The position numbers were made by a program, and so were the translations under genes. From NCBI RefSeq assembly GCF_003018115.1, contig NZ_CP027457.1: a DNA stretch of 64,000 nucleotides; one strand, 5' to 3'. Position 1 is the first letter of the stretch. Every line of letters starts with the position of its first letter. A model generated the notes under the pieces. It was not told where the DNA came from. It did not search any database and was given only the letters and a program-made list of their open reading frames with translations. Origin of the DNA: Escherichia coli (GTDB lineage: Bacteria > Pseudomonadota > Gammaproteobacteria > Enterobacterales > Enterobacteriaceae). This document shows, piece by piece, positions 36,491 to 63,295 of the stretch.

Positions 36491-36538
36491 GCCTCTTTAT
36501 CCTGGTCGACGCTGAATGAGCCTGGTAATATACCCGGT

Positions 36539-38074: not shown

Positions 38075-38115
38075 ATAACACATCCCCGTCAATACGGTTC
38101 TTGCTGCACGCTTAC

Positions 38116-38123
38116 TCAAAACT
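38116..38123. repeat. 8-bp target site duplication TCAAAACT (right copy)
   Basis: Matches left copy at 35653-35660. Confidence 0.7.
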
Positions 38124-38593
38124 GATGTTATATTTAGCTGAACAAAAATCAGCCACTTTGTTCTTCCTCATCGTCTTTTATTTCGTGGTATGAGTAATTG
38201 CAGTAGTTAAAGAAAATTTCTTATGCTCCGTCATGAATTTCCTCAGGTGTTGCGTCATCGTCCACTTCGAATACATCCTCAAAATCTCCACCAGCTATTC
38301 CCGTTTCAATAATAATTTTGAACTTTCGCATTTCACTACCGCCCTTTCGGGCGGCCTCCTGATGTTCTGAGGGTGCAGAAATCCATCCGGTTAAGGATTA
38401 AATTTTATTTACAGAACTGAATTTAATTATTCAGATATACGTATCTGTAGCCTTACGAATCTACTCACTGGATGCCTCTTTCATAAAAATAATCCAGTGG
38501 GTTTTATCGTTTTTTCCCTGTTCGTTGACAGATAACAGGTTTTCTGTCTGTCAGTGCCAGAATCTGGCTTACCGGTATTTGCGTTTCATTCCA

Positions 38594-38950
38594 TTAAAAA
38601 ATCAGAACGCCGTGCGGCCTCAACACCCGAAAGGCTTCTTTAAATCTCTGTCGCGAATCATCACGCCAGGCATCTTTATTCAGCCGTCCATATTTCTTTC
38701 CCATCCAGGCGTTATCACCAACACTCTCAAGATGCGGAGGGTCTAATACAACCATCGAAAAAGATGCGTCTGCAAATGATAATGCACGAAAATCTGCGAT
38801 AATGTCAGGGCTGATAATCAAGCGTCTCCCATTGCGTAATGTGTATCCTTCTTTTCTGATATCGCTGAATATCGCCCGTTCGTCAGACTTATCGAACCAG
38901 AACATGCGGCTGCCACAGCACATATCAAGAATGGTTGCCGGTGCACTCAC
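38594..38950 (-). pseudogene. Truncated SAM-dependent methyltransferase-like ORF (motif I then DPPH)
   Basis: 118 aa is too short for a full Rossmann MTase; in-frame TAA followed by about 32 further sense codons. Confidence 0.4.
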
Positions 38951-39369
38951 TGCGCCACGTCCTGAAAATTACCCTGATAGAAAGCCAGTATGCGCTGCAT
39001 AACTTCGCTCTTCCGGCACTCGCGACAGATTATGTTTAGGCGACTGTCGTAGCGACGTATTTCTCCGTCAGGTGATGACCAGATAAGGTCCGGATCAACC
39101 ACAGCAGGTTTCTTCACCTTTGCCCTCGAGAGTTTTTTGCGGGCGTTTTGCCAGTCCTTACGCGCCTGTTCAGAGGGGAATAACCCGTAGCCGGAGTTGT
39201 ATACATCGCCACTGGCTACCAGCTCTCTGGCAAGAACGCTCATCAGATATCTAGTCGCACCTGTTTTAGCTTCCAGTTGCCGTAACGTCTCACGGCCGCT
39301 CTGGCGCACGAGTTCCACCACCTGCCATTTAATTTTTTCCCGCTCTTCTTGTGTAAAAACTTTTGCCAC
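38947..39369 (-). CDS. Hypothetical 140-aa prophage early-operon protein
   Basis: Translationally coupled (4-nt overlap) to downstream MTase-like ORF; no family recognised. Confidence 0.45.
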   Translation of the reverse strand: MAKVFTQEEREKIKWQVVELVRQSGRETLRQLEAKTGATRYLMSVLARELVASGDVYNSGYGLFPSEQARKDWQNARKKLSRAKVKKPAVVDPDLIWSSPDGEIRRYDSRLNIICRECRKSEVMQRILAFYQGNFQDVAQ

Positions 39370-39409
39370 AAGTCCCCCTTAAAATTACCTCATGACCTGA
39401 AATCAACAC

Positions 39410-40429
39410 TTATCCTCTGAAACCAGGCGGAATTTCTGTATCCGGTTCAGAAATATGATTAACACAACGCTGTACAGGTGAACGTCCCAGGCGGATGACC
39501 AGTTCGTCCCATTTTTCGCGGAGCTTTGACGGGCTCATGATGTTTTTTACCCAGAATGGATCTCGCTGAACCCGACCAAACATTTCGCAAATTTGTCTGT
39601 GGCTTCTGCCATCCAGCATCCGCATTGTGCGCACGTCATTGGCCCAGGCAGTCCAGTTAGGCTCTTTTGGTCGCATGATCTCGCCATCATCACTGGCTGC
39701 CTGTTCGTAGAGACCCACGATCCGCCCCCAGATCCACTGCGCACACGCCAAATCCTCCCTGCTACCCCACTGGCGTTTTTTCGCACTAAACACAACCGCG
39801 TCGGAGTTCCGGGTTAAAAAATCCTGTTCAGTCGTCTGCGGGTCCGGTTGCGAAGCTTCCGGACGAAAAGTGTTTTTATTCTCTGTAGTAATCTCTGTTG
39901 TATTCTCTGTAAGATCATCAGGCCATTTTGACCCGATGACATTGGGTCGTTTTGAACCAATGGAGCGTTTCATTTTGACCTCTTCCATCGTGTCATTTTG
40001 ACCTGATGGAGCGGCGCATTTTGAACCGATGGATTCGCTCAATTTGCCACCATCTAAAAGCTCGCTCCCATAGTTGATCGTGTAGAAATTGGTCATATCG
40101 CGCTTTGATTTATTGAGCTTTTCACAACGCAAAAGCCCCAGCGTTTTCAGACTTGCAAACGCGCGCTTTAACGTTGACTCTGACCAGAATGGGAACTGTT
40201 CCAGCCATTGTTCCGTTGTGTTATAAATCCAGCGAACACCATCACATTCCATGCCGGAGTTGGTATCTCTCAACCAGTAGTGCAGTTGTTGCAAAACAAT
40301 GGCTTCGTTTAAGCCAATTTTCATTGCCAGCTGCGTGTTTATAACCAGTGGACGTTCAGCAAAAAGAAGGCTCATAATTCCATCCAGCTTTTTGTTGGTA
40401 TTGCTGTCGATACGCAAGTTTGAAAGCAA
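39410..40429 (-). CDS. Replication initiator / replisome organiser (lambda O-like), start uncertain
   Basis: N-terminal HTH-like domain; gene contains five direct iteron repeats encoding (S/V)IGSK repeats; sits in early-right operon after the cro-like dicC. Confidence 0.65.
   Translation of the reverse strand: MLSNLRIDSNTNKKLDGIMSLLFAERPLVINTQLAMKIGLNEAIVLQQLHYWLRDTNSGMECDGVRWIYNTTEQWLEQFPFWSESTLKRAFASLKTLGLLRCEKLNKSKRDMTNFYTINYGSELLDGGKLSESIGSKCAAPSGQNDTMEEVKMKRSIGSKRPNVIGSKWPDDLTENTTEITTENKNTFRPEASQPDPQTTEQDFLTRNSDAVVFSAKKRQWGSREDLACAQWIWGRIVGLYEQAASDDGEIMRPKEPNWTAWANDVRTMRMLDGRSHRQICEMFGRVQRDPFWVKNIMSPSKLREKWDELVIRLGRSPVQRCVNHISEPDTEIPPGFRG
39920..40035. repeat. Candidate replication origin iterons: five direct repeats of about 19 bp (consensus CATTTTGAMCNGATGG) at about 23-bp spacing, AT-rich region adjacent
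   Basis: Repeats read directly in sequence inside the O-like gene, as for lambda ori. Confidence 0.6.
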
Positions 40430-40877
40430 TTGCTTTTTCTATAAGTTCGTCAGTTTCACGATCCACTACGGCAGGATCAGCAAAAAGCAGTCCGGACTCC
40501 ACCACATCGCCATATTCTTTGTTTAACCCGGCGATCATGCACGTGATGCTTTTTCCGTCAGTAATTTCACGATACAACCTGAAATCATTAATCCGGATAG
40601 CCTCCATAATTGCAGGCACTAGCGCCGTGAACTTTTCACGCTTATCCCTGGTGTCGATAGCCTTCCAGCGTTCAAATATCTTCACTCGATTAACGCCAAG
40701 CGCTCGCTGATCAATCGCGCCACCTTCATATGTGACACGCTGAACATCGATGTTCGGGCGCTCTTTCAAAGCCCAGAATGCTTCAGTGATTAATATCGTC
40801 GCCTGCTCCTGTGTCATTCCTGGTCGACATATCCAGGCATCCAGAGCCTCACGAGCCTGTTCAGGAGTGATTTTCAT
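40356..40877 (-). CDS. Hypothetical 173-aa protein directly downstream of dicC (possibly YdaT-like)
   Basis: Position equivalent to ydaT/cII in lambdoid early-right operons; family call from memory only. Confidence 0.45.
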   Translation of the reverse strand: MKITPEQAREALDAWICRPGMTQEQATILITEAFWALKERPNIDVQRVTYEGGAIDQRALGVNRVKIFERWKAIDTRDKREKFTALVPAIMEAIRINDFRLYREITDGKSITCMIAGLNKEYGDVVESGLLFADPAVVDRETDELIEKAIAFKLAYRQQYQQKAGWNYEPSFC

Positions 40878-41091
40878 TGTTCAACCGCCCCGCCCGCTTC
40901 GTCTTACGATATTCATCATAAACTTTGGGATCATACTGAAGCTCCCCGCCAGATGCCTCCTGTAGACGCATCGCGCGACCTTCGGGAACTAAATCCCCTT
41001 TCCAGCTATAAAGCGAAGCCAAACGAATACCTGCTGCTTGTGCAAGTTTTGTTTTTGAACCGAAATACAAAAGAGCGTCAGTTTTAAGCAT
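40861..41091 (-). CDS. dicC: Cro-like repressor DicC
   Basis: 76 aa MLKTDALLYFGSKTKLAQAAGIRLASLYSW. Confidence 0.9.
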   Translation of the reverse strand: MLKTDALLYFGSKTKLAQAAGIRLASLYSWKGDLVPEGRAMRLQEASGGELQYDPKVYDEYRKTKRAGRLNNENHS

Positions 41092-41106
41092 TTAAAACAC
41101 CTTTAT

Positions 41107-41126
41107 TGTTAGTCATAACTAACAAG
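41107..41126. promoter_or_regulatory. Candidate DicA/DicC operator (imperfect palindrome TGTTAGTCATAACTAACA) in the dicC-dicA divergent promoter region
   Basis: Near-palindrome; related motif recurs at 41653-41670 and at the dicA start. Confidence 0.45.
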
Positions 41127-41174
41127 ATAGATGTTAACAAAAACATAGTCAATACGATTTAGCATTAGCTAACT

Positions 41175-41582
41175 ATGGAAACAAAAAATTTAACTATCGG
41201 CGAACGCATCAGGTATCGTCGGAAAAACCTCAAACACACCCAAAGGTCTCTTGCTAAAGCCCTGAAAATCTCCCATGTGTCTGTATCACAATGGGAACGG
41301 GGTGATAGTGAACCTACAGGGAAGAACCTTTTTGCCCTCAGCAAAGTATTGCAATGCTCACCAACATGGATTCTATTTGGCGATGAAGACAAGCAACCAA
41401 CACCACCTGTTGAGAAGCCAGTTGCCTTATCCCCCAAAGAACTAGAGCTCCTTGAGCTGTTTAATGCACTGCCAGAATCAGAACAGGATACCCAGCTCGC
41501 CGAAATGCGAGCTCGAGTAAAAAACTTCAATAAACTCTTTGAAGAATTACTAAAAGCCCGTCAGCGGACAAATAAAAGATAA
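41175..41582 (+). CDS. dicA: Repressor DicA (HTH_XRE, cI-like)
   Basis: 135 aa METKNLTIGERIRYRRKNLKHTQRSLAKALKISHVSVSQWERGD. Confidence 0.95.
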   Translation: METKNLTIGERIRYRRKNLKHTQRSLAKALKISHVSVSQWERGDSEPTGKNLFALSKVLQCSPTWILFGDEDKQPTPPVEKPVALSPKELELLELFNALPESEQDTQLAEMRARVKNFNKLFEELLKARQRTNKR

Positions 41583-41652
41583 CATCATCAATGAGTTATC
41601 TTTTACCACATCAATTATGTTAGCTATAGCATACAAAATCACTTGACCGATA

Positions 41653-41670
41653 TGTTAGTCATGGCTAATC
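41653..41670. promoter_or_regulatory. Second operator-like palindrome (TGTTAGTCATGGCTAATC) upstream of the ydfA-dicB operon
   Basis: Same half-site motif as 41107-41126; lies between dicA stop and ydfA. Confidence 0.4.
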
Positions 41671-41748
41671 TTGTTTGCATCAACACACCGCACGGTGTTC
41701 TCAGCAAACAGTTCCGCTACCCCAGCGTTAAGGGGAAATGAGGTCAGC

Positions 41749-41904
41749 ATGGATACTATCGATCTTGGCAACAACGAATCTCTGGTGTACGGCGTGTTTC
41801 CAAACCAGGACGGCACGTTCACCGCAATGACGTATACCAAAAGCAAAACGTTTAAAACCGAAAATGGTGCCCGTCGCTGGCTGGAAAGAAACTCAGGTGA
41901 GTGA
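41749..41904 (+). CDS. ydfA: YdfA
   Basis: ORF track 41671-41904 trimmed to MDTIDLGNNESLVYGVF, 51 aa. Confidence 0.75.
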   Translation: MDTIDLGNNESLVYGVFPNQDGTFTAMTYTKSKTFKTENGARRWLERNSGE

Positions 41905-41905
41905 T

Positions 41906-42034
41906 ATGGATTTCGACACAATCATGGAAAAGGCTTACGAAGAATACTTCGAAGGCCTTGCCGAAGGCGAAGAAGCTCTCAGCTTCAGTGAGTTTAAACA
42001 GGCGCTTTCCAGTTCGGCAAAATCTAACGGCTGA
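41906..42034 (+). CDS. ydfB: YdfB
   Basis: Hand-translated 42 aa MDFDTIMEKAYEEYFEGLAEGEEALSFSEFKQALSSSAKSNG. Confidence 0.7.
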   Translation: MDFDTIMEKAYEEYFEGLAEGEEALSFSEFKQALSSSAKSNG

Positions 42035-42063
42035 TAAGCGAAACAGCACCGCGAGGAATCAGT

Positions 42064-42282
42064 ATGCAGAAACGAGAACCCGTCATCATCGCGCCAGACT
42101 ATACCGATGATGAACTTTATGAGTGGATGCGCCAGAAAATTAATGCAGCGCAGGATCTGAAATGGGCTAATGAAGCCAGGGCTAAGCAGGCTGAAAATCT
42201 GTCCGCTCTGGAGCAGGATATCACCAATCTGGAAAAAGCAGCGGCATTAAGCATTGCCAGAATGATTACATACCCGCGTTAG
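42064..42282 (+). CDS. ydfC: YdfC
   Basis: 72 aa MQKREPVIIAPDYTDDELYEWMRQKINAAQDLKWANEARAKQAENL. Confidence 0.85.
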   Translation: MQKREPVIIAPDYTDDELYEWMRQKINAAQDLKWANEARAKQAENLSALEQDITNLEKAAALSIARMITYPR

Positions 42283-42620
42283 TAGCTAATCAACAAAGCT
42301 AAGGTTAGTAATTAAGGAGTTCTCCACGGGTGAGGTGGAGTGCGTGCGCCGGACACGGGTGCGCATCCGGAACTGACAGTTTACTGAAAGGATATTTCCC
42401 TGAAAAGTCAGACCATAACGCGAAAGCGCACGGCGAGGTAGCTGGTTCATAGATAGCCTGTCGTTAAATTTTCGTCGACCGTGCGCTTCCGGTTGTGGCA
42501 ACCCGCGAAATGGCGCGGCGGTAAGTATGGCGGGGTTATTCCTTCCCCGTTGAGGACACCGGGTTGTCAGGTTGACCATACGCTTAAGTGACAACCCCGC
42601 TGCAACGCCCTCTGTTATCA

Positions 42621-42679
42621 ATTTTCTGGTGACGTTTGGCGGTATCAGTTTTACTCCGTGACTGCTCTGCCGCCCTTTT
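42621..42679 (+). ncRNA. dicF: DicF small regulatory RNA (antisense inhibitor of ftsZ translation)
   Basis: Sequence TTTCTGGTGACGTTTGGCGGTATCAGTTTTACTCCGTGACTGCTCTGCCGCCCTTTTT with 3' terminator hairpin, between ydfC and dicB. Confidence 0.75.
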
Positions 42680-42849
42680 TAAAGTGAATTTTGTGATGTG
42701 GTGAATGCGGCTGAGCGCACGCGGAACAGTTAAAACCAAAAACAGTGTTATGGGTGGATTCTCTGTATCCGGCGTTAATTGTTAACTAGTTAACGTCACC
42801 TGGAGGCACCAGGCACTGCATCACAAAATTCATTGTTGAGGACGCGATA

Positions 42850-43038
42850 ATGAAAACGTTATTACCAAACGTTAATACGTCTGAAGGTTGTTTTGAAATT
42901 GGTGTCACTATCAGTAACCCAGTATTTACTGAAGATGCCATTAACAAGAGAAAACAAGAACGGGAGCTATTAAATAAAATATGCATTGTTTCAATGCTGG
43001 CTCGTTTACGTCTGATGCCAAAAGGATGTGCACAATGA
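42850..43038 (+). CDS. dicB: Cell division inhibitor DicB
   Basis: 62 aa MKTLLPNVNTSEGCFEIGVTISNPVFTEDAINKRKQERELLNK. Confidence 0.9.
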   Translation: MKTLLPNVNTSEGCFEIGVTISNPVFTEDAINKRKQERELLNKICIVSMLARLRLMPKGCAQ

Positions 43039-43226
43039 ATTCAGCATTTGTGCTTGTTCTGACAGTTTTTCTTGTTTCCGGAGAGCCAGTTGATATTGCA
43101 GTCAGTGTTCACAGGACAATGCAGGAGTGTATGACTGCAGCAACCGAACAGAAAATTCCCGGTAACTGTTACCCGGTCGATAAAGTTATTCACCAGGATA
43201 ATATCGAAATCCCGGCAGGTCTTTAA
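43035..43226 (+). CDS. ydfD: YdfD (small membrane-anchored lysis-type protein)
   Basis: ORF track 42981-43226 trimmed to MNSAFVLVLTVFLVSG, 63 aa; ATGA overlap with dicB stop. Confidence 0.75.
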   Translation: MNSAFVLVLTVFLVSGEPVDIAVSVHRTMQECMTAATEQKIPGNCYPVDKVIHQDNIEIPAGL

Positions 43227-43318
43227 AACAGTTCCGTAATAAATATCCGGTTTCATTCTTATATGCCAGCAATGGCAGGGATTTGTTCATCCTTAAATCT
43301 GTCATGAGGTTAAAACAA

Positions 43319-45790
43319 ATGAGTAAAGTCTTTATTTGCGCCGCTATTCCTGACGAACTGGCAACAAGGGAAGAAGGCGCTGTGGCTGTAGCCACAGCCA
43401 TTGAAGCTGGCGACGAACGCCGTGCTCGAGCAAAATTTCACTGGCAATTCCTGGAACATTATCCGGCTGCTCAGGACTGCGCTTATAAATTTATTGTCTG
43501 CGAGGATAAACCTGGCATACCCCGCCCTGCCCTCGATTCATGGGATGCTGAATATATGCAGGAAAACCGCTGGGATGAGGAGTCTGCTTCTTTTGTCCCG
43601 GTTGAGACTGAATCCGATCCGATGAACGTCACTTTTGACAAGCTGGCCCCTGAAGTACAGAACGCTGTCATGGTTAAGTTCGACACATGTGAAAACATCA
43701 CCGTTGATATGGTTATTAGCGCACAGGAATTGTTGCAGGAAGACATGGCAACATTCGACGGACATATCGTTGAAGCGTTGATGAAAATGCCAGAAGTTAA
43801 CGCCATGTATCCGGAGCTTAAGTTGCACGCCATTGGGTGGGTTAAGCATAAATGTATTCCTGGTGCTAAATGGCCCGAAATTCAGGCAGAGATGCGCATC
43901 TGGAAAAAACGTCGCGAAGGTGAACGCAAGGAAACCGGAAAATACACGTCTGTTGTTGATCTCGCCCGCGCCAGAGCCAATCAACAGTACACTGAAAATT
44001 CAACAGGAAAAATCAGCCCGGTCATTGCTGCCATTCATCGCGAATACAAGCAGACATGGAAAACACTGGATGACGAACTGGCCTACGCTCTCTGGCCTAG
44101 TGATGTGGATGCCGGAAACATTGACGGCAGCATCCATCGCTGGGCAAAAAAAGAAGTTATCGACAACGACCGCGAAGACTGGAAGCGTATCTCGGCATCA
44201 ATGCGCAAACAGCCTGATGCCCTTCGCTACGACCGCCAAACTATTTTTGGCCTTGTCCGTGAGCGTCCGATCGACATTCACAAAGATCCCGTAGCACTGA
44301 ACAAATATATCTGCGAATACCTGACGACAAAGGGCGTGTTTGAGAATGAAGAAACAGACCTGGGCACTGTTGATGTTCTCCAGTCATCAGAAACACAAAC
44401 TGATGCAGTGGAAACTGAGGTATCTGATATCCCAAAAAATGAAACCGCGCCGGAAGCTGAACCATCTGTAGAGCGTGAGGGGCCGTTCTATTTCCTCTTC
44501 GCAGATAAGGACGGAGAAAAATACGGTCGCGCAAACAAACTCTCTGGTCTGGATAAGGCACTGGCTGCTGGCGCCACTGAAATCACAAAAGAAGAATATT
44601 TTGCCCGAAAAAATGGCACATACACGGGCTTACCGCAAAATGTAGATACCGCTGAAGATTCAGAACAACCAGAGCCGATAAAAGTTACCGCTGACGAAGT
44701 AAACAAAATTATGCAGGCAGCCAATATCAGCCAGCCTGACGCCGATAAGTTGCTTGCTGCATCACGTGGTGAATTTGTTGAAGGGATTAGTGACCCGAAT
44801 GATCCGAAATGGGTTAAGGGGCTCCAGACCCGCGATTCTGTGAACCAGAACCAGCATGAATCGGAACGGAACTACCAAAAAGCGGAACAAAACAGTCCAA
44901 ATGCGTTACAAAACGAGCCAGAAACGAAACAGCCTGAACCAGTAGCGCAACAGGAAGTGGAAAAAGTCTGCACCGCCTGCGGTCAGACCGGCGGCGGCAA
45001 CTGCCCTGATTGTGGCGCGGTGATGGGCGACGCAACATACCAAGAAACATTCGATGAAGAGTATCAGGTTGAAGTTCAGGAAGATGATCCGGAGGAAATG
45101 GAAGGCGCTGAACATCCACACAAGGAGAACACTGGCGGCAATCAGCATCACAATAGCGATAATGAAACTGGCGAGACGGCAGATCACCCAATTAAGGTGA
45201 ACGGTCATCACGAAATCACATCCACCAGCAGGACGTGTGACCATCTAATGATCGACCTTGAAACCATGGGAAAAAATCCTGATGCCCCGATCATCTCAAT
45301 AGGTGCAATATTTTTCGATCCGCAAACCGGAGATATGGGACCGGAATTTAGTAAGACTATCGATCTGGAAACTGCTGGCGGAGTCATTGATCGGGACACC
45401 ATTAAATGGTGGCTTAAGCAATCACGCGAAGCGCAATCTGCCATTATGACCGATGAAATCCCGTTAGATGATGCACTGTTACAATTGCGAGAATTTATCG
45501 ACGAAAACTCCGGTGAATTTTTTGTTCAGGTTTGGGGAAATGGAGCCAACTTCGACAACACGATTTTGCGCCGTTCATACGAACGGCAGGGGATCCCCTG
45601 CCCGTGGCGTTACTACAACGATCGCGATGTACGCACAATCGTTGAGCTGGGGAAAGCCATAGACTTCGATGCCAGAACGGCTATTCCATTCGAAGGTGAG
45701 CGCCATAATGCACTTGATGACGCCCGTTACCAGGCAAAATACGTTTCAGTTATCTGGCAAAAACTGATCCCGAGTCAGGCTGATTCTTAA
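43319..45790 (+). CDS. ydfE: Full-length YdfE-type protein: large N-terminal region, acidic linker, Cys4 zinc ribbon, C-terminal DEDDh 3'-5' exonuclease domain
   Basis: ORF track 43283-45790; start chosen at MSKVFICAAIPDEL after GAGG; Exo I DLE, Exo II GNGANFD, Exo III HNALDDARY motifs in the last ~190 aa. Confidence 0.7.
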   Translation: MSKVFICAAIPDELATREEGAVAVATAIEAGDERRARAKFHWQFLEHYPAAQDCAYKFIVCEDKPGIPRPALDSWDAEYMQENRWDEESASFVPVETESDPMNVTFDKLAPEVQNAVMVKFDTCENITVDMVISAQELLQEDMATFDGHIVEALMKMPEVNAMYPELKLHAIGWVKHKCIPGAKWPEIQAEMRIWKKRREGERKETGKYTSVVDLARARANQQYTENSTGKISPVIAAIHREYKQTWKTLDDELAYALWPSDVDAGNIDGSIHRWAKKEVIDNDREDWKRISASMRKQPDALRYDRQTIFGLVRERPIDIHKDPVALNKYICEYLTTKGVFENEETDLGTVDVLQSSETQTDAVETEVSDIPKNETAPEAEPSVEREGPFYFLFADKDGEKYGRANKLSGLDKALAAGATEITKEEYFARKNGTYTGLPQNVDTAEDSEQPEPIKVTADEVNKIMQAANISQPDADKLLAASRGEFVEGISDPNDPKWVKGLQTRDSVNQNQHESERNYQKAEQNSPNALQNEPETKQPEPVAQQEVEKVCTACGQTGGGNCPDCGAVMGDATYQETFDEEYQVEVQEDDPEEMEGAEHPHKENTGGNQHHNSDNETGETADHPIKVNGHHEITSTSRTCDHLMIDLETMGKNPDAPIISIGAIFFDPQTGDMGPEFSKTIDLETAGGVIDRDTIKWWLKQSREAQSAIMTDEIPLDDALLQLREFIDENSGEFFVQVWGNGANFDNTILRRSYERQGIPCPWRYYNDRDVRTIVELGKAIDFDARTAIPFEGERHNALDDARYQAKYVSVIWQKLIPSQADS

Positions 45791-45862
45791 TGTTCAACTG
45801 TCGCCGGTTGTGACTGGTATTCTGCAACCGGCGCTCGTCTGATGTAAGAGATAAAGAAATCG

Positions 45863-46114
45863 ATGAGCGAAGTAATCATGATTGTCTCTCCCGGCAAATG
45901 GGTATCCGAAGAGCAGTTAATTGCGCTGAAAGGAATAAAAAAAGGTACGTTAAAAAAGGCCCGGGAAAAATCGTTTATGGAAGGAAGGGAATATAAGCAT
46001 GTCGCTCATGACGGTATGCCATGGGATAACAGTCCATGCTTTTACAACCTGGAAGAAATTGATCGCTGGATTGAGCGCCAGGCATCAGCGAGACCAAGAC
46101 GTCATCTTACTTGA
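45863..46114 (+). CDS. Excisionase-like protein
   Basis: 83 aa small basic protein immediately upstream of integrase. Confidence 0.55.
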   Translation: MSEVIMIVSPGKWVSEEQLIALKGIKKGTLKKAREKSFMEGREYKHVAHDGMPWDNSPCFYNLEEIDRWIERQASARPRRHLT

Positions 46115-46148
46115 CTAAAAGCCACACTAACTAATGAGAGAAGTTGAA

Positions 46149-47429
46149 ATGAAATATCCGACAGGCGTGGAAAACCATGGAGGGAAATTACGTATCTGGT
46201 TTGTTTATAAAGACGTAAGAGTCAGGGAAAATCTGGGGGTTCCTGACACAGCAAAAAACAGGCGCGTTGCAGGTGAACTACGCTCCTCTGTTTGTTACGC
46301 AATAAAAACTGGTGTTTTCGACTATGCAAAACAGTTTCCCTCCTCACGCAATCTGGAAAAATTTGGTGAGGCCCGACAAGATTTAACCATAAAAGAACTG
46401 GCTGAAAAATTTCTGGCACTGAAAGAAACTGAAGTCGCCAAAACATCACTCAACACATACCGTGCCGTCATCAAAAATATCCTGAGCATAATCGGTGAAA
46501 AAAATCTTGCCTCATCGATTAATAAAGAAAAATTACTGGAGGTTCGTAAAGAGTTACTGACTGGATACCAGATCCCCAAAAGTAACTATATTGTTACACA
46601 ACCAGGGAGATCGGCTGTAACTGTAAATAATTACATGACAAATCTTAACGCCGTGTTCCAGTTTGGTGTTGATAACGGTTACCTGGCAGATAATCCGTTT
46701 AAGGGGATCTCGCCATTAAAGGAATCAAGAACCATTCCGGATCCTCTTTCGCGGGAAGAATTTATCCGTCTTATCGATGCGTGCAGAAATCAGCAAGCAA
46801 AAAATTTATGGTGTGTTTCTGTTTATACTGGAGTTCGCCCTGGTGAGCTGTGTGCACTTGGATGGGAGGACATAGATCTGAAAAATGGAACAATGATGAT
46901 CAGGAGAAATTTAGCAAAAGACCGTTTCACGGTACCAAAAACACAGGCGGGAACCAATCGGGTCATTCATCTTATTAAGCCAGCAATCGACGCTCTCCGG
47001 AGTCAGATGACATTAACGAGACTGAGCAAAGAGCATATCATTGATGTTCACCTCAGAGAGTATGGCAGAACAGAAAAACAAAAATGCACCTTTGTTTTTC
47101 AACCTGAAGTGTCAGCGAGAGTAAAAAATTATGGTGACCATTTTACCGTTGACTCAATAAGGCAGATGTGGGACGCAGCGATAAAACGTGCCGGACTCCG
47201 CCATCGAAAATCATATCAGTCGAGACATACTTATGCCTGCTGGTCGCTGACAGCTGGTGCTAACCCGGCATTTATAGCAAACCAGATGGGCCATGCAGAT
47301 GCGCAAATGGTATTTCAGGTATACGGAAAATGGATGTCTGAAAACAATAATGCACAGGTAGCTTTGTTAAATACACAGTTAAGCGAGTTTGCCCCAACCA
47401 TGCCCCATAACGAAGCAATGAAAAATTAA
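46149..47429 (+). CDS. intQ: Tyrosine recombinase / phage integrase (full-length)
   Basis: ORF track 46134-47429; C-terminal catalytic region with R...HxxR...Y pattern (ending HTYACW). Confidence 0.85.
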   Translation: MKYPTGVENHGGKLRIWFVYKDVRVRENLGVPDTAKNRRVAGELRSSVCYAIKTGVFDYAKQFPSSRNLEKFGEARQDLTIKELAEKFLALKETEVAKTSLNTYRAVIKNILSIIGEKNLASSINKEKLLEVRKELLTGYQIPKSNYIVTQPGRSAVTVNNYMTNLNAVFQFGVDNGYLADNPFKGISPLKESRTIPDPLSREEFIRLIDACRNQQAKNLWCVSVYTGVRPGELCALGWEDIDLKNGTMMIRRNLAKDRFTVPKTQAGTNRVIHLIKPAIDALRSQMTLTRLSKEHIIDVHLREYGRTEKQKCTFVFQPEVSARVKNYGDHFTVDSIRQMWDAAIKRAGLRHRKSYQSRHTYACWSLTAGANPAFIANQMGHADAQMVFQVYGKWMSENNNAQVALLNTQLSEFAPTMPHNEAMKN

Positions 47430-47616
47430 TTTAATATTTATCAAATAGTTAACACGCATGACTCTTGAAATCCATAAATTCAAGCGCAGTGCCCAGCCAT
47501 CCCGATACCGCTGCTTTCACCAAATCCTTAGTGCTTCTTTCGTGTTTTTCTATTGTCATAATGGTTATCTCTAAAAAAGAGGTAAGATGCGTACTACTTA
47601 CTCGCCGTTATTGGTA

Positions 47617-48636
47617 TTATTCAGAAAAAGTGAGTAAGACTTTGCAGCAATGTTTTTGATCCTGTTCAAATAAACTAATGGCATCAGCAACATGCTGGAA
47701 ATCAAACGTATGGGTAATTAATTTTTCTGGTTTAATTAACCCTTTACTTAACCAGTCGATAACGACCGGAAATTTATTTGCATTTAAGCGTGAAGAGAAA
47801 ATAGAGAGTTCTTTTCCGGTAATTCCTTGCTGAATCACTTCAGACGGTTCACTGGAGAACCCCATCAATACAATACGTGCCGCTGGAGAAGCCAGCGTTA
47901 CGGCCTCTTTCAAGATAGAAGGATGACAAGCCGCATCGATAATTAATGTCGGCTTGATGCCTTTTTCAGTGAAAATCTCGCCAAGCGGTGTCTGGCTGTT
48001 ATTAATCGCCCAGTCAGCCCCGCTCTCTTTCGCTTTTTCCAGTCGTTCATCAATGCGATCGGCAACAATCACATTTTTAACGTTATAGACGCCTTTTAAT
48101 ACCTGAACGATCGTCAGGCCGATTGGACCGGCACCATAAACCAGAACGGTATCATTTTCTGTCGGTTGACCATGTCCGGTTACGTTAGCCGCAATGGTAA
48201 AAGGTTCGATCATTACCGCATATTGATCGGCCACTGCTTCAGGAATTTTCCACGCATTTTTTGCCGGAACCACGGCATATTCACTGAAACCACCGTCAGC
48301 GTGCACACCTAATACAGCCAGTGTCATACAAACGTTCGGTTTACCTATAGAGCACGGATAGCAATGCCCACAGCTGACCACCGGATCGACAGCAACACGT
48401 TCACCGACTCTGGCGCTTTCCACGCCGTCACCCACTGCATCAATGACGCCAAAGAATTCATGACCAATGACGCGCGGATATTTCGCAAAAGGATTATGCC
48501 CACGATAAATATGGCTATCTGAACCACAAATTCCGGCAAGTTTCACTTTTACTCGTACTTCACCCGCTGACGGGGTGGGTATTTCACGTTCGACAATCGC
48601 CAGTTGATTCGGTTTTTCAATTAATATGCTTTTCAT
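47617..48636 (-). CDS. rspB: Zn-dependent alcohol dehydrogenase family protein RspB
   Basis: ORF track 47617-48660 trimmed to MKSILIEKPN, 339 aa; GHEFFG and Cys zinc ligands. Confidence 0.9.
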   Translation of the reverse strand: MKSILIEKPNQLAIVEREIPTPSAGEVRVKVKLAGICGSDSHIYRGHNPFAKYPRVIGHEFFGVIDAVGDGVESARVGERVAVDPVVSCGHCYPCSIGKPNVCMTLAVLGVHADGGFSEYAVVPAKNAWKIPEAVADQYAVMIEPFTIAANVTGHGQPTENDTVLVYGAGPIGLTIVQVLKGVYNVKNVIVADRIDERLEKAKESGADWAINNSQTPLGEIFTEKGIKPTLIIDAACHPSILKEAVTLASPAARIVLMGFSSEPSEVIQQGITGKELSIFSSRLNANKFPVVIDWLSKGLIKPEKLITHTFDFQHVADAISLFEQDQKHCCKVLLTFSE

Positions 48637-48647
48637 TATCTTACTCC

Positions 48648-49862
48648 TTACCAGTTCCACAGCGTGCCATCTTCCAGACGTGCGACTGGTAGATAAGCAG
48701 GTTCATAGGGATATTTCGCCGCCAGCTTTTCATCGAATTCGATACCAAGACCCGGTTTGTCTCCCGGATGCATATAGCCGTTATCGAAAGTCCAGTTGTG
48801 CGGGAAGACTTCGAGCATTTGTTCGGAATAACCCATGTATTCCTGGACACCGAAATTGGGGACCCACAGATCAAAATGCAGCGCCGCAGCCATGCAGACT
48901 GGTGACAAATCGGAAGGACCGTGTGAGCCAGTACGTACCTGATACAGCGAAGCAAAATCGGCAATCCGGCGCATACCGGTAATTCCGCCTGTATGGGTCA
49001 GCGTGGTGCGGATATAATCGATAAGTTGCTCTTCAATCAGTTGCTTGCAGTCCCAGATGCTGTTGAAGACTTCACCCACTGCGATGGGTGTGACGGTATG
49101 TTGGCGAATGAGACGGAAGCATTCCTGGTTTTCCGCAGGCGTCGGGTCTTCCATCCAGAACATGCGATAATCTTCAATGCTTTTACCAAAGCGCGCCGCT
49201 TCAATAGGCGTTAAGCGATGGTGCATGTCATGCAGCAAATGTTCATTAAAACCAAACTTGTTACGTACCGCGTCAAACAATTTCGGCATGAAATCGAGGT
49301 ATTTCTCCGTCGACCACAGCTGCTCTTCCGGCCACTGTCCTTTGGTTGCGGGTTCATAAGCCAGACCTTTACCTTTCGACATGCCGTAGGTGGTTTTCAT
49401 ACCAGGGATTCCGCACTGCACGCGGATGGCTTTGAATCCCAGCTCCTGATGACGGGCATAATCATCCAGAGCTTCATCAATACTGTGACCGGTGGTATGG
49501 CAATAAACCATCACCCCTTCACGAGACGCGCCGCCGAGTAACTGGTAAAGCGGCATGTTGGCAGCTTTGGCTTTAATATCCCACAGCGCCATATCAACCG
49601 CTGAAATGGCCGACATCGTAACCGGACCGCGACGCCAGTAAGCACCTTTATAGAAAAACTGCCAGATATCTTCGATACGGTGCGCATCGCGACCAATAAG
49701 CTGCGGACAAAGGTGATCCTGCAAATAAGAGGCCACGGAAAGCTCACGTCCATTGAGGGTGGCATCCCCAAGGCCCGTAATACCGTCCTCAGTGGTGATT
49801 TTTAATGTGACGAAATTACGCCCCGGACAGGTAACAAAAACTTCAGCCTTTACGATCTTCAT
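48648..49862 (-). CDS. rspA: Starvation-sensing protein RspA (enolase superfamily, mannonate dehydratase-like)
   Basis: ORF track 48648-49895 trimmed to [10 protein letters not shown], 404 aa. Confidence 0.9.
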
Positions 49863-50067
49863 GTTCGATTCCTTGCATCGCTTGTCGTGATGCATGAAAT
49901 CTACGCAACTGAGCTACTACCATACAAGTATGAAGATCAAAAAAAGCCGGAGTGATCACAAAAAAAGGCGTATATTTTCGCCATGAATGGTTGACAAAAG
50001 ATGAAATAGAGTACCTTTTATCAGCTGACGCTTCCTCGTATCTTATTGATAAAATGGATTTATGTTC

Positions 50068-50394
50068 CTACGTGCGCCCCCAGCCCGCAACAATGATCAA
50101 CATGCCGCAAAGCGCAATCAACGCACCCATCCAGTCATAAAGAGTCAGTTTCACGCCATCCACAACGCGCAGCCACATCAACGCCGTGCAGACATAAACG
50201 CCACCATAAGCCGCGTAAACACGCCCACTCGCCGCAGGATGCAACGTTAACAACCAGACAAACAGCGCCAGTGAAATCCCCGCCGGAAGCAACAGCCAGA
50301 TACTGGCGTTTCGTTTTAACCACAACCAGGGCAGAAAGCATCCAATAATTTCACACAGCGCAGTAGCAAAAAATAGTAACGTTGTTTTAATCAT
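50068..50394 (-). CDS. ynfA: UPF0060 inner membrane protein YnfA
   Basis: 108 aa, four TM segments. Confidence 0.85.
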
Positions 50395-50528
50395 CTTTGT
50401 CACTTATTGACATCATGTATAGTTATAGGGCCACATAATATCATCAATATAAACACCCTCCTGGTACGTTTTGCGTTCGCAGTGGATGGTGTAGAATCAC
50501 CTTTAATCATTCATACAGGGAATGAATT

Positions 50529-50870
50529 ATGAAAATCACTCTCAGCAAACGAATCGGCCTGCTCGCTTTTCTGCTGCCTTGCGCACTGGCATTGAGCACA
50601 ACTGTTCATGCCGAAACTAACAAACTGGTGATTGAGTCTGGCGACAGTGCACAAAGCCGCCAGCACGCCGCTATGGAAAAAGAGCAATGGAATGACACGC
50701 GCAATCTGCGTCAGAAAGTGAATAAACGCACTGAAAAAGAGTGGGATAAAGCCGACGCCGCTTTTGATAACCGCGATAAATGTGAGCAAAGCGCCAACAT
50801 CAATGCCTACTGGGAGCCCAATACTTTGCGCTGCCTGGACCGTCGAACTGGCCGCGTTATTACCCCCTAA
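50529..50870 (+). CDS. ynfB: Secreted protein YnfB
   Basis: 113 aa with signal peptide. Confidence 0.85.
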
Positions 50871-50904
50871 CCTGTTATTGATTTAAGGAATGTAAGGACA
50901 CGTT

Positions 50905-51465
50905 ATGCCAAGCGCCCACAGTGTTAAGCTACGCCCGCTGGAGCGTGAAGATTTACGCTATGTACATCAACTCGACAATAACGCCAGTGTGATGCGTTAC
51001 TGGTTTGAGGAACCCTACGAAGCCTTTGTTGAACTCTCTGATCTGTATGATAAGCATATTCACGATCAGAGCGAACGGCGCTTTGTGGTGGAATGTGACG
51101 GCGAAAAAGCCGGTCTGGTGGAGCTGGTGGAAATTAACCATGTTCATCGCCGCGCAGAATTTCAGATAATTATCTCCCCGGAGTATCAGGGGAAAGGTCT
51201 GGCAACCCGTGCCGCCAAATTAGCAATGGACTATGGCTTCACCGTTCTCAATCTCTATAAGCTGTATCTGATCGTCGATAAAGAGAATGAAAAAGCGATT
51301 CACATTTACCGCAAGCTTGGCTTTACGGTTGAAGGTGAATTGATGCATGAGTTCTTTATTAATGGTCAATATCGTAATGCCATTCGCATGTGTATATTCC
51401 AGCATCAGTATCTGGCAGAGCACAAAACACCGGGTCAGACTCTCCTGAAGCCGACCGCACAATAG
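50905..51465 (+). CDS. speG: Spermidine N1-acetyltransferase SpeG (GNAT)
   Basis: 186 aa, SpeG sequence. Confidence 0.95.
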
Positions 51466-51467
51466 CA

Positions 51468-52178
51468 TTAATAATAATCGATCGTATTTTTGATGGTGTA
51501 AACCCGTTCGACGGCGGGTTTTACTCCTTCATCAACAATGATCAGCTGACAGTCCACCGGATTGGCGTGACTGTCATATTCACAGCTCTGTTTTACATTA
51601 CCAACTCGTTGATTATTCAGTAAAGTAACCGCTGTGTAATCTAATTTTTTGATCGGGTCCGTTGATGGCGTGGCGCTGACAGATAATGTTTTGTCGTTAC
51701 TTTTCGTGGTTTTACCCAGTGGATAACCCTGATCATCATAGCGATATTCCATCTGCATTTGTTTGCTGCTGGCTTTAATCACGAAGCCATTATCATCGGT
51801 TTCCCAACTCACCCCGGCGGAAGGTAATTCCGCTAGCTGGCATTTTCCCTGTAAACGTACTCTCTTCTCCAGCGTCTCGGCATCACGGTAATAATTGGCG
51901 TCCAGTACCAGAGCGACCACGGTATTATTTTCCAGATCCAGTAATTCGAGTGAATCAAAACAGCCTTCTTCCGACAAAGTCCCCGAAACACGTTTCGTCA
52001 CTTCACCTTGCTCATCCATTAATGTCTGAGTGAAATCTTTTACCGGACCACGCAGCGGATCAAAATCGAATTCATTAGAGAAACTGGCCATCTCAGGAGT
52101 AAATGAAAGTGTTACCTCTGTGCGGTCACATCCTGTGAGGAATATCGCGAGTAAGCATGGTAGTAATTTGTATTTCAC
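51468..52178 (-). CDS. ynfC: Lipoprotein YnfC
   Basis: ORF track 51468-52214; lipobox LTGC; start probably the alternative codon at V13 giving 236 aa. Confidence 0.8.
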   Translation of the reverse strand: MKYKLLPCLLAIFLTGCDRTEVTLSFTPEMASFSNEFDFDPLRGPVKDFTQTLMDEQGEVTKRVSGTLSEEGCFDSLELLDLENNTVVALVLDANYYRDAETLEKRVRLQGKCQLAELPSAGVSWETDDNGFVIKASSKQMQMEYRYDDQGYPLGKTTKSNDKTLSVSATPSTDPIKKLDYTAVTLLNNQRVGNVKQSCEYDSHANPVDCQLIIVDEGVKPAVERVYTIKNTIDYY

Positions 52179-52285
52179 AACAGTCACCAGAGAGTAGAGA
52201 TGATTCTCAATCATAGTAGCAAATACAGTACTTTACACGTTAAATGCTATGCTTAAAGAAGTTATCTTCGCGTAAGGAGCTTATG

Positions 52286-52591
52286 ATGAAACTCTCAACC
52301 TGCTGTGCCGCGCTTCTGCTCGCCCTCGCCTCACCCGCGGTACTTGCCGCGCCGGGATCCTGTGAGCGCATACAGAGCGATATATCACAGCGCATTATCA
52401 ATAATGGCGTACCCGAAAGCAGCTTCACGTTAAGTATTGTACCCAATGACCAGGTTGATCAGCCTGATTCCCAGGTCGTCGGGCATTGTGCTAATGATAC
52501 GCATAAAATTCTCTACACCCGCACCACCAGCGGTAACGTCTCTGCTCCCGCGCAGTCTACCCAGGATGGCGCGCCTGCCGAACCGCAGTAA
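52286..52591 (+). CDS. ynfD: Secreted protein YnfD
   Basis: ORF track 52244-52591 trimmed to MKLSTCCAALLLALASPAVLA, 101 aa. Confidence 0.8.
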   Translation: MKLSTCCAALLLALASPAVLAAPGSCERIQSDISQRIINNGVPESSFTLSIVPNDQVDQPDSQVVGHCANDTHKILYTRTTSGNVSAPAQSTQDGAPAEPQ

Positions 52592-52789
52592 CACATTATC
52601 GACTGAACGCCGGATATGACACATCCGGCGATTTGAACATACAACATAATCCCACCATATTACTCATACCCTTCTATTGATGTGGATTAATAATTCTTAA
52701 CCCAAAATGGGTAGACTTCCTCTATTGTTAGCGCGCTAAATATTCAATATATAAACATTTATATAACGATAAAGAACAGGGAGTGAGTT

Positions 52790-55216
52790 ATGTCAAAAAA
52801 TGACCGAATGGTGGGCATCAGCCGCAGAACACTCGTTAAATCTACCGCGATAGGTTCTCTGGCGCTGGCTGCAGGCGGTTTTTCTTTGCCGTTTACCCTG
52901 CGCAGTGCAGCAGCAGCGGTACAACAGGCCCGCGAAAAAGTGGTCTGGGGTGCCTGTTCCGTCAACTGTGGTAGCCGCTGTGCACTTCGTCTACATGTTA
53001 AAGATAATGAAGTGACCTGGGTGGAAACTGACAATACCGGCAGCGATGAGTACGGCAACCATCAGGTACGCGCCTGTTTGCGCGGTCGCTCCATCCGCCG
53101 GCGTATTAATCATCCCGATCGCTTGAATTACCCAATGAAACGCGTGGGTAAACGCGGTGAAGGCAAATTCGAACGGATTAGCTGGGATGAAGCCCTGGAT
53201 ACTATCGCCAGTAGCCTGAAGAAAACCGTCGAACAATATGGCAATGAGGCTGTATATATTCAGTACTCTTCGGGGATCGTTGGCGGCAATATGACCCGCT
53301 CTTCGCCATCAGCCTCGGCGGTCAAACGCCTGATGAACTGCTACGGCGGTTCACTCAATCAGTATGGCTCCTACAGCACCGCACAAATTTCCTGTGCCAT
53401 GCCCTACACCTACGGCAGTAATGATGGCAACAGCACCACGGATATTGAAAACAGCAAGCTGGTCGTGATGTTTGGTAACAACCCGGCAGAAACCCGCATG
53501 AGCGGCGGTGGCATCACTTATCTTCTTGAAAAAGCGCGCGAGAAATCGAACGCCAAAATGATTGTTATCGATCCGCGATATACCGATACGGCTGCTGGTC
53601 GTGAAGATGAATGGCTTCCTATTCGCCCGGGCACCGATGCCGCGCTGGTTGCGGGGATTGCCTGGGTATTGATTAACGAAAATCTCGTTGATCAACCTTT
53701 TCTCGATAAATACTGCGTCGGCTATGACGAAAATACCTTACCCGCAGATGCACCCAAAAATGGTCACTATAAAGCCTATATTCTTGGTGAAGGAAACGAT
53801 AAAACAGCGAAAACGCCGCAGTGGGCTTCGCAAATTACCGGTATCCCGGTGGACCGTATCATCAAACTGGCGCGTGAAATTGGCACAGCAAAACCCGCTT
53901 ATATCTGCCAGGGCTGGGGGCCACAACGCCAGGCAAACGGCGAGCTGACCGCACGCGCTATTGCTATGTTGCCTATTCTGACGGGCAATGTCGGCATCAG
54001 CGGCGGAAATAGTGGCGCGCGTGAATCGACCTATACCATTACCATAGAACGCCTGCCGGTGCTGGATAATCCGGTCAAAACGTCAATCTCCTGCTTCAGC
54101 TGGACAGATGCTATCGATCATGGCCCGCAAATGACGGCAATCCGCGACGGCGTCCGGGGCAAAGATAAACTGGATGTGCCCATTAAGTTCATCTGGAACT
54201 ACGCGGGAAATACCCTGGTTAATCAGCATTCTGACATCAACAAAACGCATGAAATTCTGCAGGACGAATCGAAATGCGAAATGATTGTGGTCATCGAAAA
54301 CTTTATGACCTCATCGGCAAAATATGCCGACATTCTGCTGCCAGACCTGATGACCGTTGAGCAGGAAGATATTATTCCTAACGACTACGCCGGTAACATG
54401 GGATATCTCATTTTCCTCCAGCCAGTCACCAGCGAAAAATTCGAACGTAAACCGATTTACTGGATCCTGAGTGAAGTCGCGAAACGTCTTGGACCTGACG
54501 TCTATCAAAAGTTCACTGAAGGTCGCACGCAGGAACAATGGTTACAACATCTGTACGCCAAAATGCTTGCCAAAGATCCGGCGTTACCGTCTTACGACGA
54601 ACTGAAAAAAATGGGTATCTATAAGCGTAAAGATCCCAATGGTCATTTTGTCGCCTACAAAGCATTTCGTGACGACCCCGAGGCAAATCCACTTAAAACA
54701 CCTTCCGGTAAGATTGAAATTTATTCCAGCAAGCTGGCTGAAATTGCCCGTACCTGGGAACTGGAAAAAGATGAAGTGATAAGCCCACTGCCAGTTTATG
54801 CCTCTACCTTTGAAGGCTGGGACTCACCTGAACGTAGAACCTTCCCACTGCAACTGTTTGGTTTCCATTACAAATCCCGTACTCACTCGACCTACGGCAA
54901 TATTGATCTCCTGAAGGCTGCCTGCCGTCAGGAGGTGTGGATCAACCCTATAGATGCGCAGAAACGTGGGATTGCCAACGGCGATATGGTGCGGGTGTTT
55001 AACAATCGTGGCGAAGTTCGGCTACCAGCCAAAGTGACACCACGTATTCTCCCTGGAGTTAGCGCTATGGGCCAGGGAGCCTGGCACGAGGCCAATATGT
55101 CTGGCGATAAAATCGACCATGGAGGCTGTGTGAATACGCTAACCACTCTGCGCCCTTCACCACTGGCGAAGGGAAACCCGCAGCATACGAATCTGGTCGA
55201 GATCGAAAAAATATAA
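52790..55216 (+). CDS. ynfE: Molybdopterin oxidoreductase, DMSO/selenate reductase-type catalytic subunit YnfE (Tat signal)
   Basis: 808 aa, twin-arginine motif SRRTLVK, Cys cluster CSVNCGSRC. Confidence 0.9.
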   Translation: MSKNDRMVGISRRTLVKSTAIGSLALAAGGFSLPFTLRSAAAAVQQAREKVVWGACSVNCGSRCALRLHVKDNEVTWVETDNTGSDEYGNHQVRACLRGRSIRRRINHPDRLNYPMKRVGKRGEGKFERISWDEALDTIASSLKKTVEQYGNEAVYIQYSSGIVGGNMTRSSPSASAVKRLMNCYGGSLNQYGSYSTAQISCAMPYTYGSNDGNSTTDIENSKLVVMFGNNPAETRMSGGGITYLLEKAREKSNAKMIVIDPRYTDTAAGREDEWLPIRPGTDAALVAGIAWVLINENLVDQPFLDKYCVGYDENTLPADAPKNGHYKAYILGEGNDKTAKTPQWASQITGIPVDRIIKLAREIGTAKPAYICQGWGPQRQANGELTARAIAMLPILTGNVGISGGNSGARESTYTITIERLPVLDNPVKTSISCFSWTDAIDHGPQMTAIRDGVRGKDKLDVPIKFIWNYAGNTLVNQHSDINKTHEILQDESKCEMIVVIENFMTSSAKYADILLPDLMTVEQEDIIPNDYAGNMGYLIFLQPVTSEKFERKPIYWILSEVAKRLGPDVYQKFTEGRTQEQWLQHLYAKMLAKDPALPSYDELKKMGIYKRKDPNGHFVAYKAFRDDPEANPLKTPSGKIEIYSSKLAEIARTWELEKDEVISPLPVYASTFEGWDSPERRTFPLQLFGFHYKSRTHSTYGNIDLLKAACRQEVWINPIDAQKRGIANGDMVRVFNNRGEVRLPAKVTPRILPGVSAMGQGAWHEANMSGDKIDHGGCVNTLTTLRPSPLAKGNPQHTNLVEIEKI

Positions 55217-55273
55217 CCCACTACAACCATAAATTCTGGCATGACATTTTGTTTGAAAAGCAATAAGTGAGTA

Positions 55274-57700: not shown

Positions 57701-57710
57701 GGAGTAGCCC

Positions 57711-58328
57711 ATGACCACACAATATGGATTTTTTATCGATTCCAGCCGCTGTACTGGCTGTAAAACCTGCGAACTGGCGTGCAAAGATTTTAAAGATCTT
57801 GGCCCGGAAGTCAGTTTCCGCCGTATTTATGAATATGCTGGCGGCGACTGGCAGGAAGATAATGGCGTCTGGCACCAGAACGTGTTCGCTTATTATCTCT
57901 CCATCTCCTGTAACCATTGCGATGACCCCGCATGTACAAAAGTCTGCCCCAGCGGCGCAATGCATAAGCGTGAAGATGGCTTTGTGGTGGTTGATGAAGA
58001 TGTTTGTATCGGCTGCCGCTACTGCCACATGGCTTGTCCGTACGGCGCGCCACAGTACAATGCTGAAAAAGGACACATGACGAAGTGCGATGGTTGTTAT
58101 TCGCGCGTCGCCGAGGGGAAACAACCCATATGTGTCGAATCCTGCCCACTGCGTGCACTTGAGTTCGGTCCAATTGAAGAGCTGCGCCAGAAGCACGGCA
58201 CTCTTGCTGCCGTCGCGCCACTGCCGCGCGCGCATTTCACAAAACCCAATATCGTTATCAAACCTAACGCCAACAGCCGCCCGACCGGCGATACCACTGG
58301 TTATCTGGCTAATCCGGAGGAAGTGTAA
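57711..58328 (+). CDS. ynfG: 4Fe-4S ferredoxin-type electron transfer subunit YnfG (DmsB-like)
   Basis: 205 aa with four CxxCxxCxxxCP clusters. Confidence 0.9.
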   Translation: MTTQYGFFIDSSRCTGCKTCELACKDFKDLGPEVSFRRIYEYAGGDWQEDNGVWHQNVFAYYLSISCNHCDDPACTKVCPSGAMHKREDGFVVVDEDVCIGCRYCHMACPYGAPQYNAEKGHMTKCDGCYSRVAEGKQPICVESCPLRALEFGPIEELRQKHGTLAAVAPLPRAHFTKPNIVIKPNANSRPTGDTTGYLANPEEV

Positions 58329-58329
58329 A

Positions 58330-59184: not shown

Positions 59185-59226
59185 CAAATTGGTGCGGGGC
59201 AACCCGCACATTTCAGGATGTTAGGA

Positions 59227-63284: not shown

Positions 63285-63295
63285 CGCATACTCCC

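Follow-up and report, generated by a model that had tools for sequence, protein, structure and literature searches.

The closest described relatives of the locus considered here are the cryptic prophage Qin of Escherichia coli K-12, the ydfJ prophages of STEC and EPEC, designated PPydfJ, and several free phages. In the annotation of MG1655, Qin occupies 1632277..1652745. Ramisetty and Sudhakari reported that it integrates at the 5' end of ydfJ, 28 N-terminal codons of which are lost, and that it is present in 48% of strains (PMC6379469). PPydfJ, like the prophage discussed below, is a lambdoid prophage put into ydfJ by its own integrase; it carries T3SS effector loci and intra-prophage attB sites, sometimes clustered, and inversions between prophages at ompW and ydfJ were reported for O157 (PMC8112680). 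In the same paper (S7 Fig), Nakamura et al. (2021) derived the att of ydfJ prophages from a comparison of attP, attL, attR and attB and described it as an "18- or 19-bp att sequence". Among the free phages, mEp460_ev081 was called a functional temperate phage (PMC10448788).

The window, i.e., the whole stretch of 64,000 nucleotides of E. coli DNA analysed here, begins within a tail-fibre gene and passes from a prophage into the bacterial chromosome between int and rspB. In our opinion, this interval is, with a probability of about 95%, the integrase-proximal hybrid att site of a full-length Qin/mEp460-type lambdoid prophage of ~50 kb in the 5' end of ydfJ. It is the higher-coordinate prophage end in K-12 numbering. 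By lambda convention, the int-proximal hybrid site is named attL (B-O-P').

Comparison with the Described Systems

The K-12 Qin prophage shares with the window the host gene ydfJ, the 11-bp core, the YnfP protein, the neighbours rspB and rspA, and 45 bp of phage arm by the core, which are identical. However, only a remnant is left of Qin, whose annotated ends are ~20.5 kb apart and whose intQ has been reduced to a pseudogene through truncation by IS2, whereas the ~50 kb prophage of the window has intact int and xis and retains the full complement of genes for head, tail, lysis and replication. The cargo of the window prophage is of the Qin type (relBE, hokD, csp genes and dicBF).

The free phages mEp460_ev081, HannyBb, Tritos and PhiR42_1 have an Int 99% identical to that of the window, the same and contiguous P' arm, core and P arm, and the same gene order (tail fibre-pin-ydfK-attP-int-xis-exo). 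At the same time, mEp460_ev081 matches only ~21 of the 47.5 kb of the window prophage (megablast), and its head genes differ (mosaic).

The window resembles lambda in its heterobivalent tyrosine integrase, the N-terminus of which forms an arm-binding domain, in the xis gene beside int, and in the shortness of the common core. Unlike lambda, the window has an Int of 426 aa with an arm domain of the PF12167 type, its core is unrelated (11 bp of identity against 15 bp in lambda), its site lies within a coding sequence (ydfJ) and not in an intergenic attB such as gal-bio, and the arm from the int stop to the core measures only 37 bp; therefore, arm sites would overlap int. In lambda, H' lies on the int-proximal arm and is followed by P'1-P'3, with P1/P2 in the other arm. 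The window has a corresponding order of an IHF-consensus match and then tandem candidate arm sites, and this geometry recalls P'1-P'3 and P1/P2, but these are candidate sites, and their counts are not significant.

Structure of the Interval between int and rspB

The features of the interval and its surroundings are as follows (window positions):

45863-46114, + strand: xis, excisionase of 83 aa (Pfam PF06806, E=1.6e-31)
46149-47429, + strand: int, intact tyrosine integrase of 426 aa (PF12167, E=3.7e-22; PF00589, E=3.9e-18)
47390-47398 and 47401-47409, + strand: candidate pair of arm-type Int sites, TGCCCCAAC and TGCCCCATA (motif search, attP)
47430-47466: phage-derived DNA from the int stop to the core, 37 bp; the core-proximal int-side arm, P' in lambda terms
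47439-47451, + strand: TATCAAATAGTTA, which fits the IHF consensus WATCAANNNNTTR exactly, at 16-28 bp from the core
47449-47559, - strand: ynfP, chimeric 36-aa ORF composed of 31 YdfJ codons, 5 phage codons (KSHAC) and a stop
47467-47477: common core GAAATCCATAA (11 bp), unchanged between attB, attP and the two prophage junctions
47467-47559, - strand: 5' fragment of ydfJ, 31 native codons, start codon at 47559-47557 (translation, EC596 alignment)
47560-47616: native rspB-ydfJ intergenic spacer, host DNA, 57 bp, collinear with empty-site strains
47617-48636, - strand: rspB, Zn-dependent oxidoreductase, host gene (annotation of matching DNA in many genomes)

An earlier sequence-only reading had int ending at 47429 and rspB at 47617 in convergent orientation, with a gap of 187 bp (47430-47616) between them, and these coordinates are correct. 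The TAA of int occupies 47427-47429 on the + strand in the ORF list, and the stop of rspB, a - strand gene, lies at 47617-47619. The longest ORF of int begins at 46134 and its annotated-type start is at 46149; the longest - strand ORF of rspB is 47617..48660 and its annotated form is 47617..48636. From left to right, the interval is made up of the phage arm, the start of ydfJ and the native spacer, and about half of it is coding (ydfJ 5' end/ynfP, - strand) rather than empty spacer. The prophage was described as lying next to rspB; it does not adjoin that gene directly but interrupts ydfJ, the first 31 codons of which stand, as part of the chimeric ynfP, between the core and rspB.

Position of the Junction and the Common Core

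A query of 321 bp across the interval was compared with 5426 complete E. coli genomes and had a match in 5138 of them. The whole junction, flanked by int and rspB, was found in 2691 genomes (49.6%), which agrees with the frequency of 48% reported for Qin (PMC6379469). In genomes with an intact annotated ydfJ beside rspB, the match begins at query base 85-88, that is, at window 47464-47467; base-by-base alignment with one of them, EC596, gives identity from 47467 rightwards and none leftwards. This comparison with empty sites puts the phage/host junction at 47466|47467, inside the interval where the sequence-only reading had expected one att site. A reciprocal query centred on attB matched without interruption in 2009 genomes; in most of the others its match was split. 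The phage arm 47430-47466 has no similarity to empty-site ydfJ, but in K-12 Qin, CE0011b and free-phage attP it recurs with few or no changes. As for ydfJ, its first 96 nt alone (47464-47559) are represented in the window, and the other 1272 nt have no match there.

The 11-mer GAAATCCATAA is all that attB shares with both the window junction and the far junction. It corresponds to ydfJ nt 83-93, codons 28-31 (F-M-D-F), and on the coding strand reads TT-ATG-GAT-TTC within E-F-M-D-F. With both strands searched, it occurs once in the window, the chance expectation for an 11-mer being ~0.03 (128,000 positions / 4^11). Across the empty site, the attB sequence contains AACTGGAAATCCATAAATTCAAGCG. No direct-repeat family touches the interval when a second copy of any 47.4-47.6 kb segment is sought within the window, and an Rfam search of 47.3-47.7 kb gave nothing. 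An att site at the 3' end of a tRNA or tmRNA gene was ruled out: the core lies in codons 28-31 of ydfJ, and ARAGORN found no tRNA or tmRNA in the 64-kb window.

Far Junction in Related Prophages

The opposite end of the prophage was assumed in the sequence-only reading to lie outside the window. Indeed, the core is present once in 64 kb and the rest of ydfJ is missing. The same reading regarded the core repeat as beyond identification here, but the core can be recognised even with that flank missing, by comparison with strains whose site is empty, with sister prophages, with Qin of K-12 and with attP of free phages. The relatives used for the far junction are as follows:

CFS3246: 99.98-99.99% identical to window 1-47521, bar a short gpFI length difference and IS2
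CE0011b: window 1-9000 and 9000-33999 each matched in a single piece at 100.0%
EC11: 96-99.9% identical, varying by segment
K-12 Qin: the same junctions

In all four, the far junction has the form host ...AACTG-GAAATCCATAA-TTCACAGG... phage, the phage side after the core also reads TTCACAGGTG, and the 3' part of ydfJ adjoins ynfT-ydfK-pinQ-tfaQ-stf. The direct repeat of the core beyond the stf side was thus seen in sister prophages, the window's own far junction being located beyond the window. In CFS3246 and CE0011b, the far core precedes window position 1 by 2877 bp, and the prophage would measure ~50.35 kb if the genome of the window is the same there. In MG1655, GAAATCCATAA occurs at 1632277-1632287 and 1652746-1652756. 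Since the second copy comes right after the annotated end of Qin, that end corresponds to 47466|47467 of the window.

None of the complete genomes, searched with three segments of the window, was fully collinear with it. EC11 has stretches at 96-98% identity and is without ISEc22, CFS3246 has an extra IS2, CE0011b an extra ISCro1, and in Ecol_AZ155 the tail region differs and is inverted. The int side of the latter prophage (NZ_CP019005.1) is 99.9% identical to window 33000-50000, and its tail end (5852-11173 of the segment compared) abuts a truncated ompW followed by yciE-yciF-yciG-trpA, not ydfJ. This points to a large inversion, in which a prophage at ompW recombined with one at ydfJ, of the kind reported for O157 (PMC8112680); therefore, the two junctions need not occur as a pair in all genomes.

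Attachment Site of Free Phages

The int side of the window was joined at the core to the phage side of the far junction, and the reconstructed attP of 600 bp was used to search the phage collection. It was found whole and contiguous, with 98.3-99.7% identity, in the virion genomes of four phages (PhiR42_1, mEp460_ev081, HannyBb and Tritos). The context of the core in attP is ...GACTCTT GAAATCCATAA TTCACAGG..., and the sequence across it contains GACTCTTGAAATCCATAATTCACAGG. The core is intact in mEp460_ev081, HannyBb and PhiR42_1 and has one substitution in Tritos. In mEp460_ev081, attP is in the middle of the genome, between tail fibre/pin/ydfK and int-xis-exo. The lambda attP likewise has a mid-genome position.

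In more diverged phages (a Stx2a phage and phi330), the sequence beyond the core was found to be different or deleted. In Stx2a_EH1535 (LC727872.1; about 990-1051 of the segment compared), the int end, arm and core are 90.7% identical, and the core runs directly into sequence located ~200 bp further out in the P arm of the mEp460 type. At the place of this join, attP of the mEp460 type (about 478-500 of the reconstructed site; about 1998-2015 of the phage region) has a core-like CTGGAAATCATTCAATAC, possibly a secondary or pseudo-core at which a deletion ended.

The comparison of attP and attB also bears on the length of the site. Beyond the 11 bp, similarity continues imperfectly over window 47464-47482 (CTTGAAATCCATAAATTCA), where attB has CTGGAAATCCATAAATTCA and attP has CTTGAAATCCATAATTCA (19 and 18 bp, respectively). 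The functional att may then be this longer imperfect segment, in which the 11-bp identity is only the centre and inverted core-type Int-binding half-sites (CTKGAA / TTCA) surround the overlap. In favour of this definition, to which we give a chance slightly below even, attP and attB have CT.GAAATCCATAA(A)TTCA in common, apart from a single mismatch and an indel of one base, and BLAST of attB against the far junctions reaches TTCA with a gap. Moreover, the 19/18-bp similarity fits the length of the att given in PMC8112680 (S7 Fig), although the equivalence of the two would have to be assumed, and strand exchange needs identity, which is present only within the 11 bp. Such a definition refines the reading of the interval as a hybrid att site in ydfJ and does not contradict it.

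Integrase, Excisionase and Probable Mechanism of Integration

PF12167 in Int is the N-terminal arm-DNA-binding domain, and PF00589 is the catalytic phage integrase domain, which aligns to Tn1549 Int, including RHT...H...Y; the motif residues read from the sequence are R230, R359, H382 and Y392. Int of the window and that of mEp460_ev081 are identical in 422 of 426 residues. Counterparts of xis are annotated as "excisionase family protein" in EC11, CFS3246 and CE0011b.

By analogy with lambda, this integrase, which has the arm-binding domain, would have recombined attP with attB within the shared GAAATCCATAA at 47467-47477, leaving phage DNA to the left of 47467 and host DNA from 47467 rightwards. 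At the reciprocal junction, the core would be repeated and the other 427 codons of ydfJ would come after it, ~2.9 kb past the left edge of the window if the closest relatives are followed. In this way, ydfJ would be split, and its promoter-proximal 31 codons would stay downstream of rspB, fused to 5 phage codons to give YnfP. Cleavage is expected inside the 11-bp core, and according to the lambda Int paradigm, strand exchange would take place in a 6-8-bp overlap within it, probably flanked by inverted core-type half-sites (CTTGAA / TTCA(CAG) in attP and CTGGAA / TTCAAG in attB). Excision by Int and Xis would regenerate attB and full ydfJ, and the window copy may still be capable of it.

The candidate arm-type sites were searched for in the reconstructed attP and in that of mEp460_ev081. 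On the int side they are tandem motifs TGCCCCA(A/T)(C/A), the pair being 11 bp apart inside the last codons of int, and a matching candidate pair, TGTCCCATA/TGCCCCAAA, is in the other (P) arm. TGYCCCAWA-like pairs with 11-bp spacing were found 5 times against 3.4 expected in 3.6 kb, which is not significant. The IHF consensus is not rare either: the two strands of the whole window together contain 4 matches, against 2.9 expected. Judging by sequence and position, 47390-47409 may represent arm sites of Int, and 47439-47451 may be an IHF site in the lambda H' position. The sequence-only reading had allowed an overlap of att with the 3' end of int; this is plausible for these candidate arm-type sites only and does not hold for the core. 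If they are real, the functional site would cover ~47390-47485.

Another view of the interval is that the prophage, like K-12 Qin, is "grounded" and no longer excises, so that att is a scar without present function. This is true for K-12, where the same junction accompanies the truncated intQ, and mutations of intQ are frequent (PMC6379469). The window prophage itself carries ISEc22 (about 35.7-38.1 kb) and, going by equivalent positions in sister prophages, an ISNCY transposase fragment and pseudogenes, and in about every second E. coli genome the junction is fixed. However, the window has int and xis at full length, and a functional phage has an Int 99% identical to this one; the core, arm and IHF consensus are unchanged in comparison with free-phage attP, and genes for head, tail, lysis and replication are present. 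Because int, xis, arm and core are intact, a fossil site is less likely in the window than in K-12, and we consider it unlikely.

Fragment of ydfJ and the Chimeric Protein YnfP

Translation of the - strand from 47559 gives MTIEKHERSTKDLVKAAVSGWLGTALEFMDFKSHAC*, residues 1-31 of which are the N-terminus of the MFS transporter YdfJ (in comparison with EC596). The product is identical to K-12 YnfP (b4534), which is among the small proteins detected by VanOrsdel et al. (PMC6001520, Table 1). The remaining 427-codon ORF of ydfJ starts at an ATG inside the far core and is an annotated CDS in K-12. A scan of 47200-47800 gave no promoter-like or terminator-like sites; since none stands between rspB and the ydfJ start, ynfP is probably transcribed with or just after rspAB.

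In CFS3246, an IS2 interrupts ydfJ'/ynfP on the stretch from the att core to rspB; the window does not have this IS2. Its breakpoint corresponds to window 47517-47521 and to about 18418-19646 of the CFS3246 segment compared, and the alignment overlap of 5 bp is consistent with target duplication.

It is conceivable that the insertion is functional rather than a scar, in the form of a reversible ydfJ switch ("active lysogeny"), of an own function of YnfP, or of read-through from rspAB antisense to int. As to the first, the prophage splits the putative sugar-acid cluster rspA-rspB-ydfJ-ydfI (regulator rspR), and excision would restore ydfJ; YnfP, as a conserved, expressed chimeric peptide, may have acquired its own function; and read-through across the junction could tie integrase expression to starvation signals. 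These suggestions have no support other than the way the genes are arranged and the report that YnfP was detected, and we regard them as very improbable.

As to the 11-bp repeat itself, a transposition-type target-site duplication or chance microhomology from illegitimate recombination would look alike, as a short direct repeat flanking an element and present once in the empty site, but it is practically ruled out because the element itself carries the core, inside free-phage attP between the two prophage ends, where a transposable phage would not carry its target, and, moreover, thousands of genomes, and diverged prophages as well, have the insertion at one and the same point, the neighbours are a tyrosine integrase and an excisionase with no transposase, and the 11-mer occurs once in 64 kb, with ~0.03 copies expected by chance.

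Other Features of the Window

The early region of the prophage contains ISEc22 of the IS66 family (tnpA, tnpB, transposase) at about 35662-38115 on the + strand, with ORFs at 35742-36146, 36143-36490 and 36539-38074 (+). It is absent at the same place in the sister prophage of EC11, and the breakpoint overlap is about 8-9 bp. In comparison with CFS3246, the prophage (window 1-47521) is 99.98% identical and the host flank (47518-64000) only 98.9%; for this reason, the prophage and the flanking chromosome have different histories, by recent prophage transfer or recombination. A length difference of ~72 nt at 15257-15314, inside the DNA-packaging gene FI, and the IS2 mentioned above are the only structural differences from CFS3246 in 47 kb.

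Rfam models identified DicF sRNA at 42624-42675 (+), the sok antitoxin RNA of the hokD locus at 34538-34709 (-), and two cspA-type thermoregulator leaders at 24405-24790 (-) and 27300-27692 (-), belonging to prophage cold-shock genes. This DicF/sok/csp cargo is the same as in K-12 Qin, here in a full-length prophage. In the chromosomal part, two adjacent ORFs of 808 aa (52790-55216 and 55274-57700), with 71-77% DNA identity, are the paralogous selenate/DMSO-reductase genes ynfE and ynfF, which account for the largest direct-repeat families in the window.

Conclusions

The att site in ydfJ, the boundary of Qin, YnfP and the prophage inversions between ompW and ydfJ have all been described before, and the reading of the interval as an integrase-proximal hybrid att site brings no new biology. 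It is of use mainly for annotation, as the boundary of the prophage is fixed to the base (47466|47467). The "intergenic" 187 bp are explained as a phage arm, a core, ydfJ'/ynfP and a native spacer, and the prophage is recognised as an intact-looking relative of both the defective Qin of K-12 and the functional phage mEp460_ev081.
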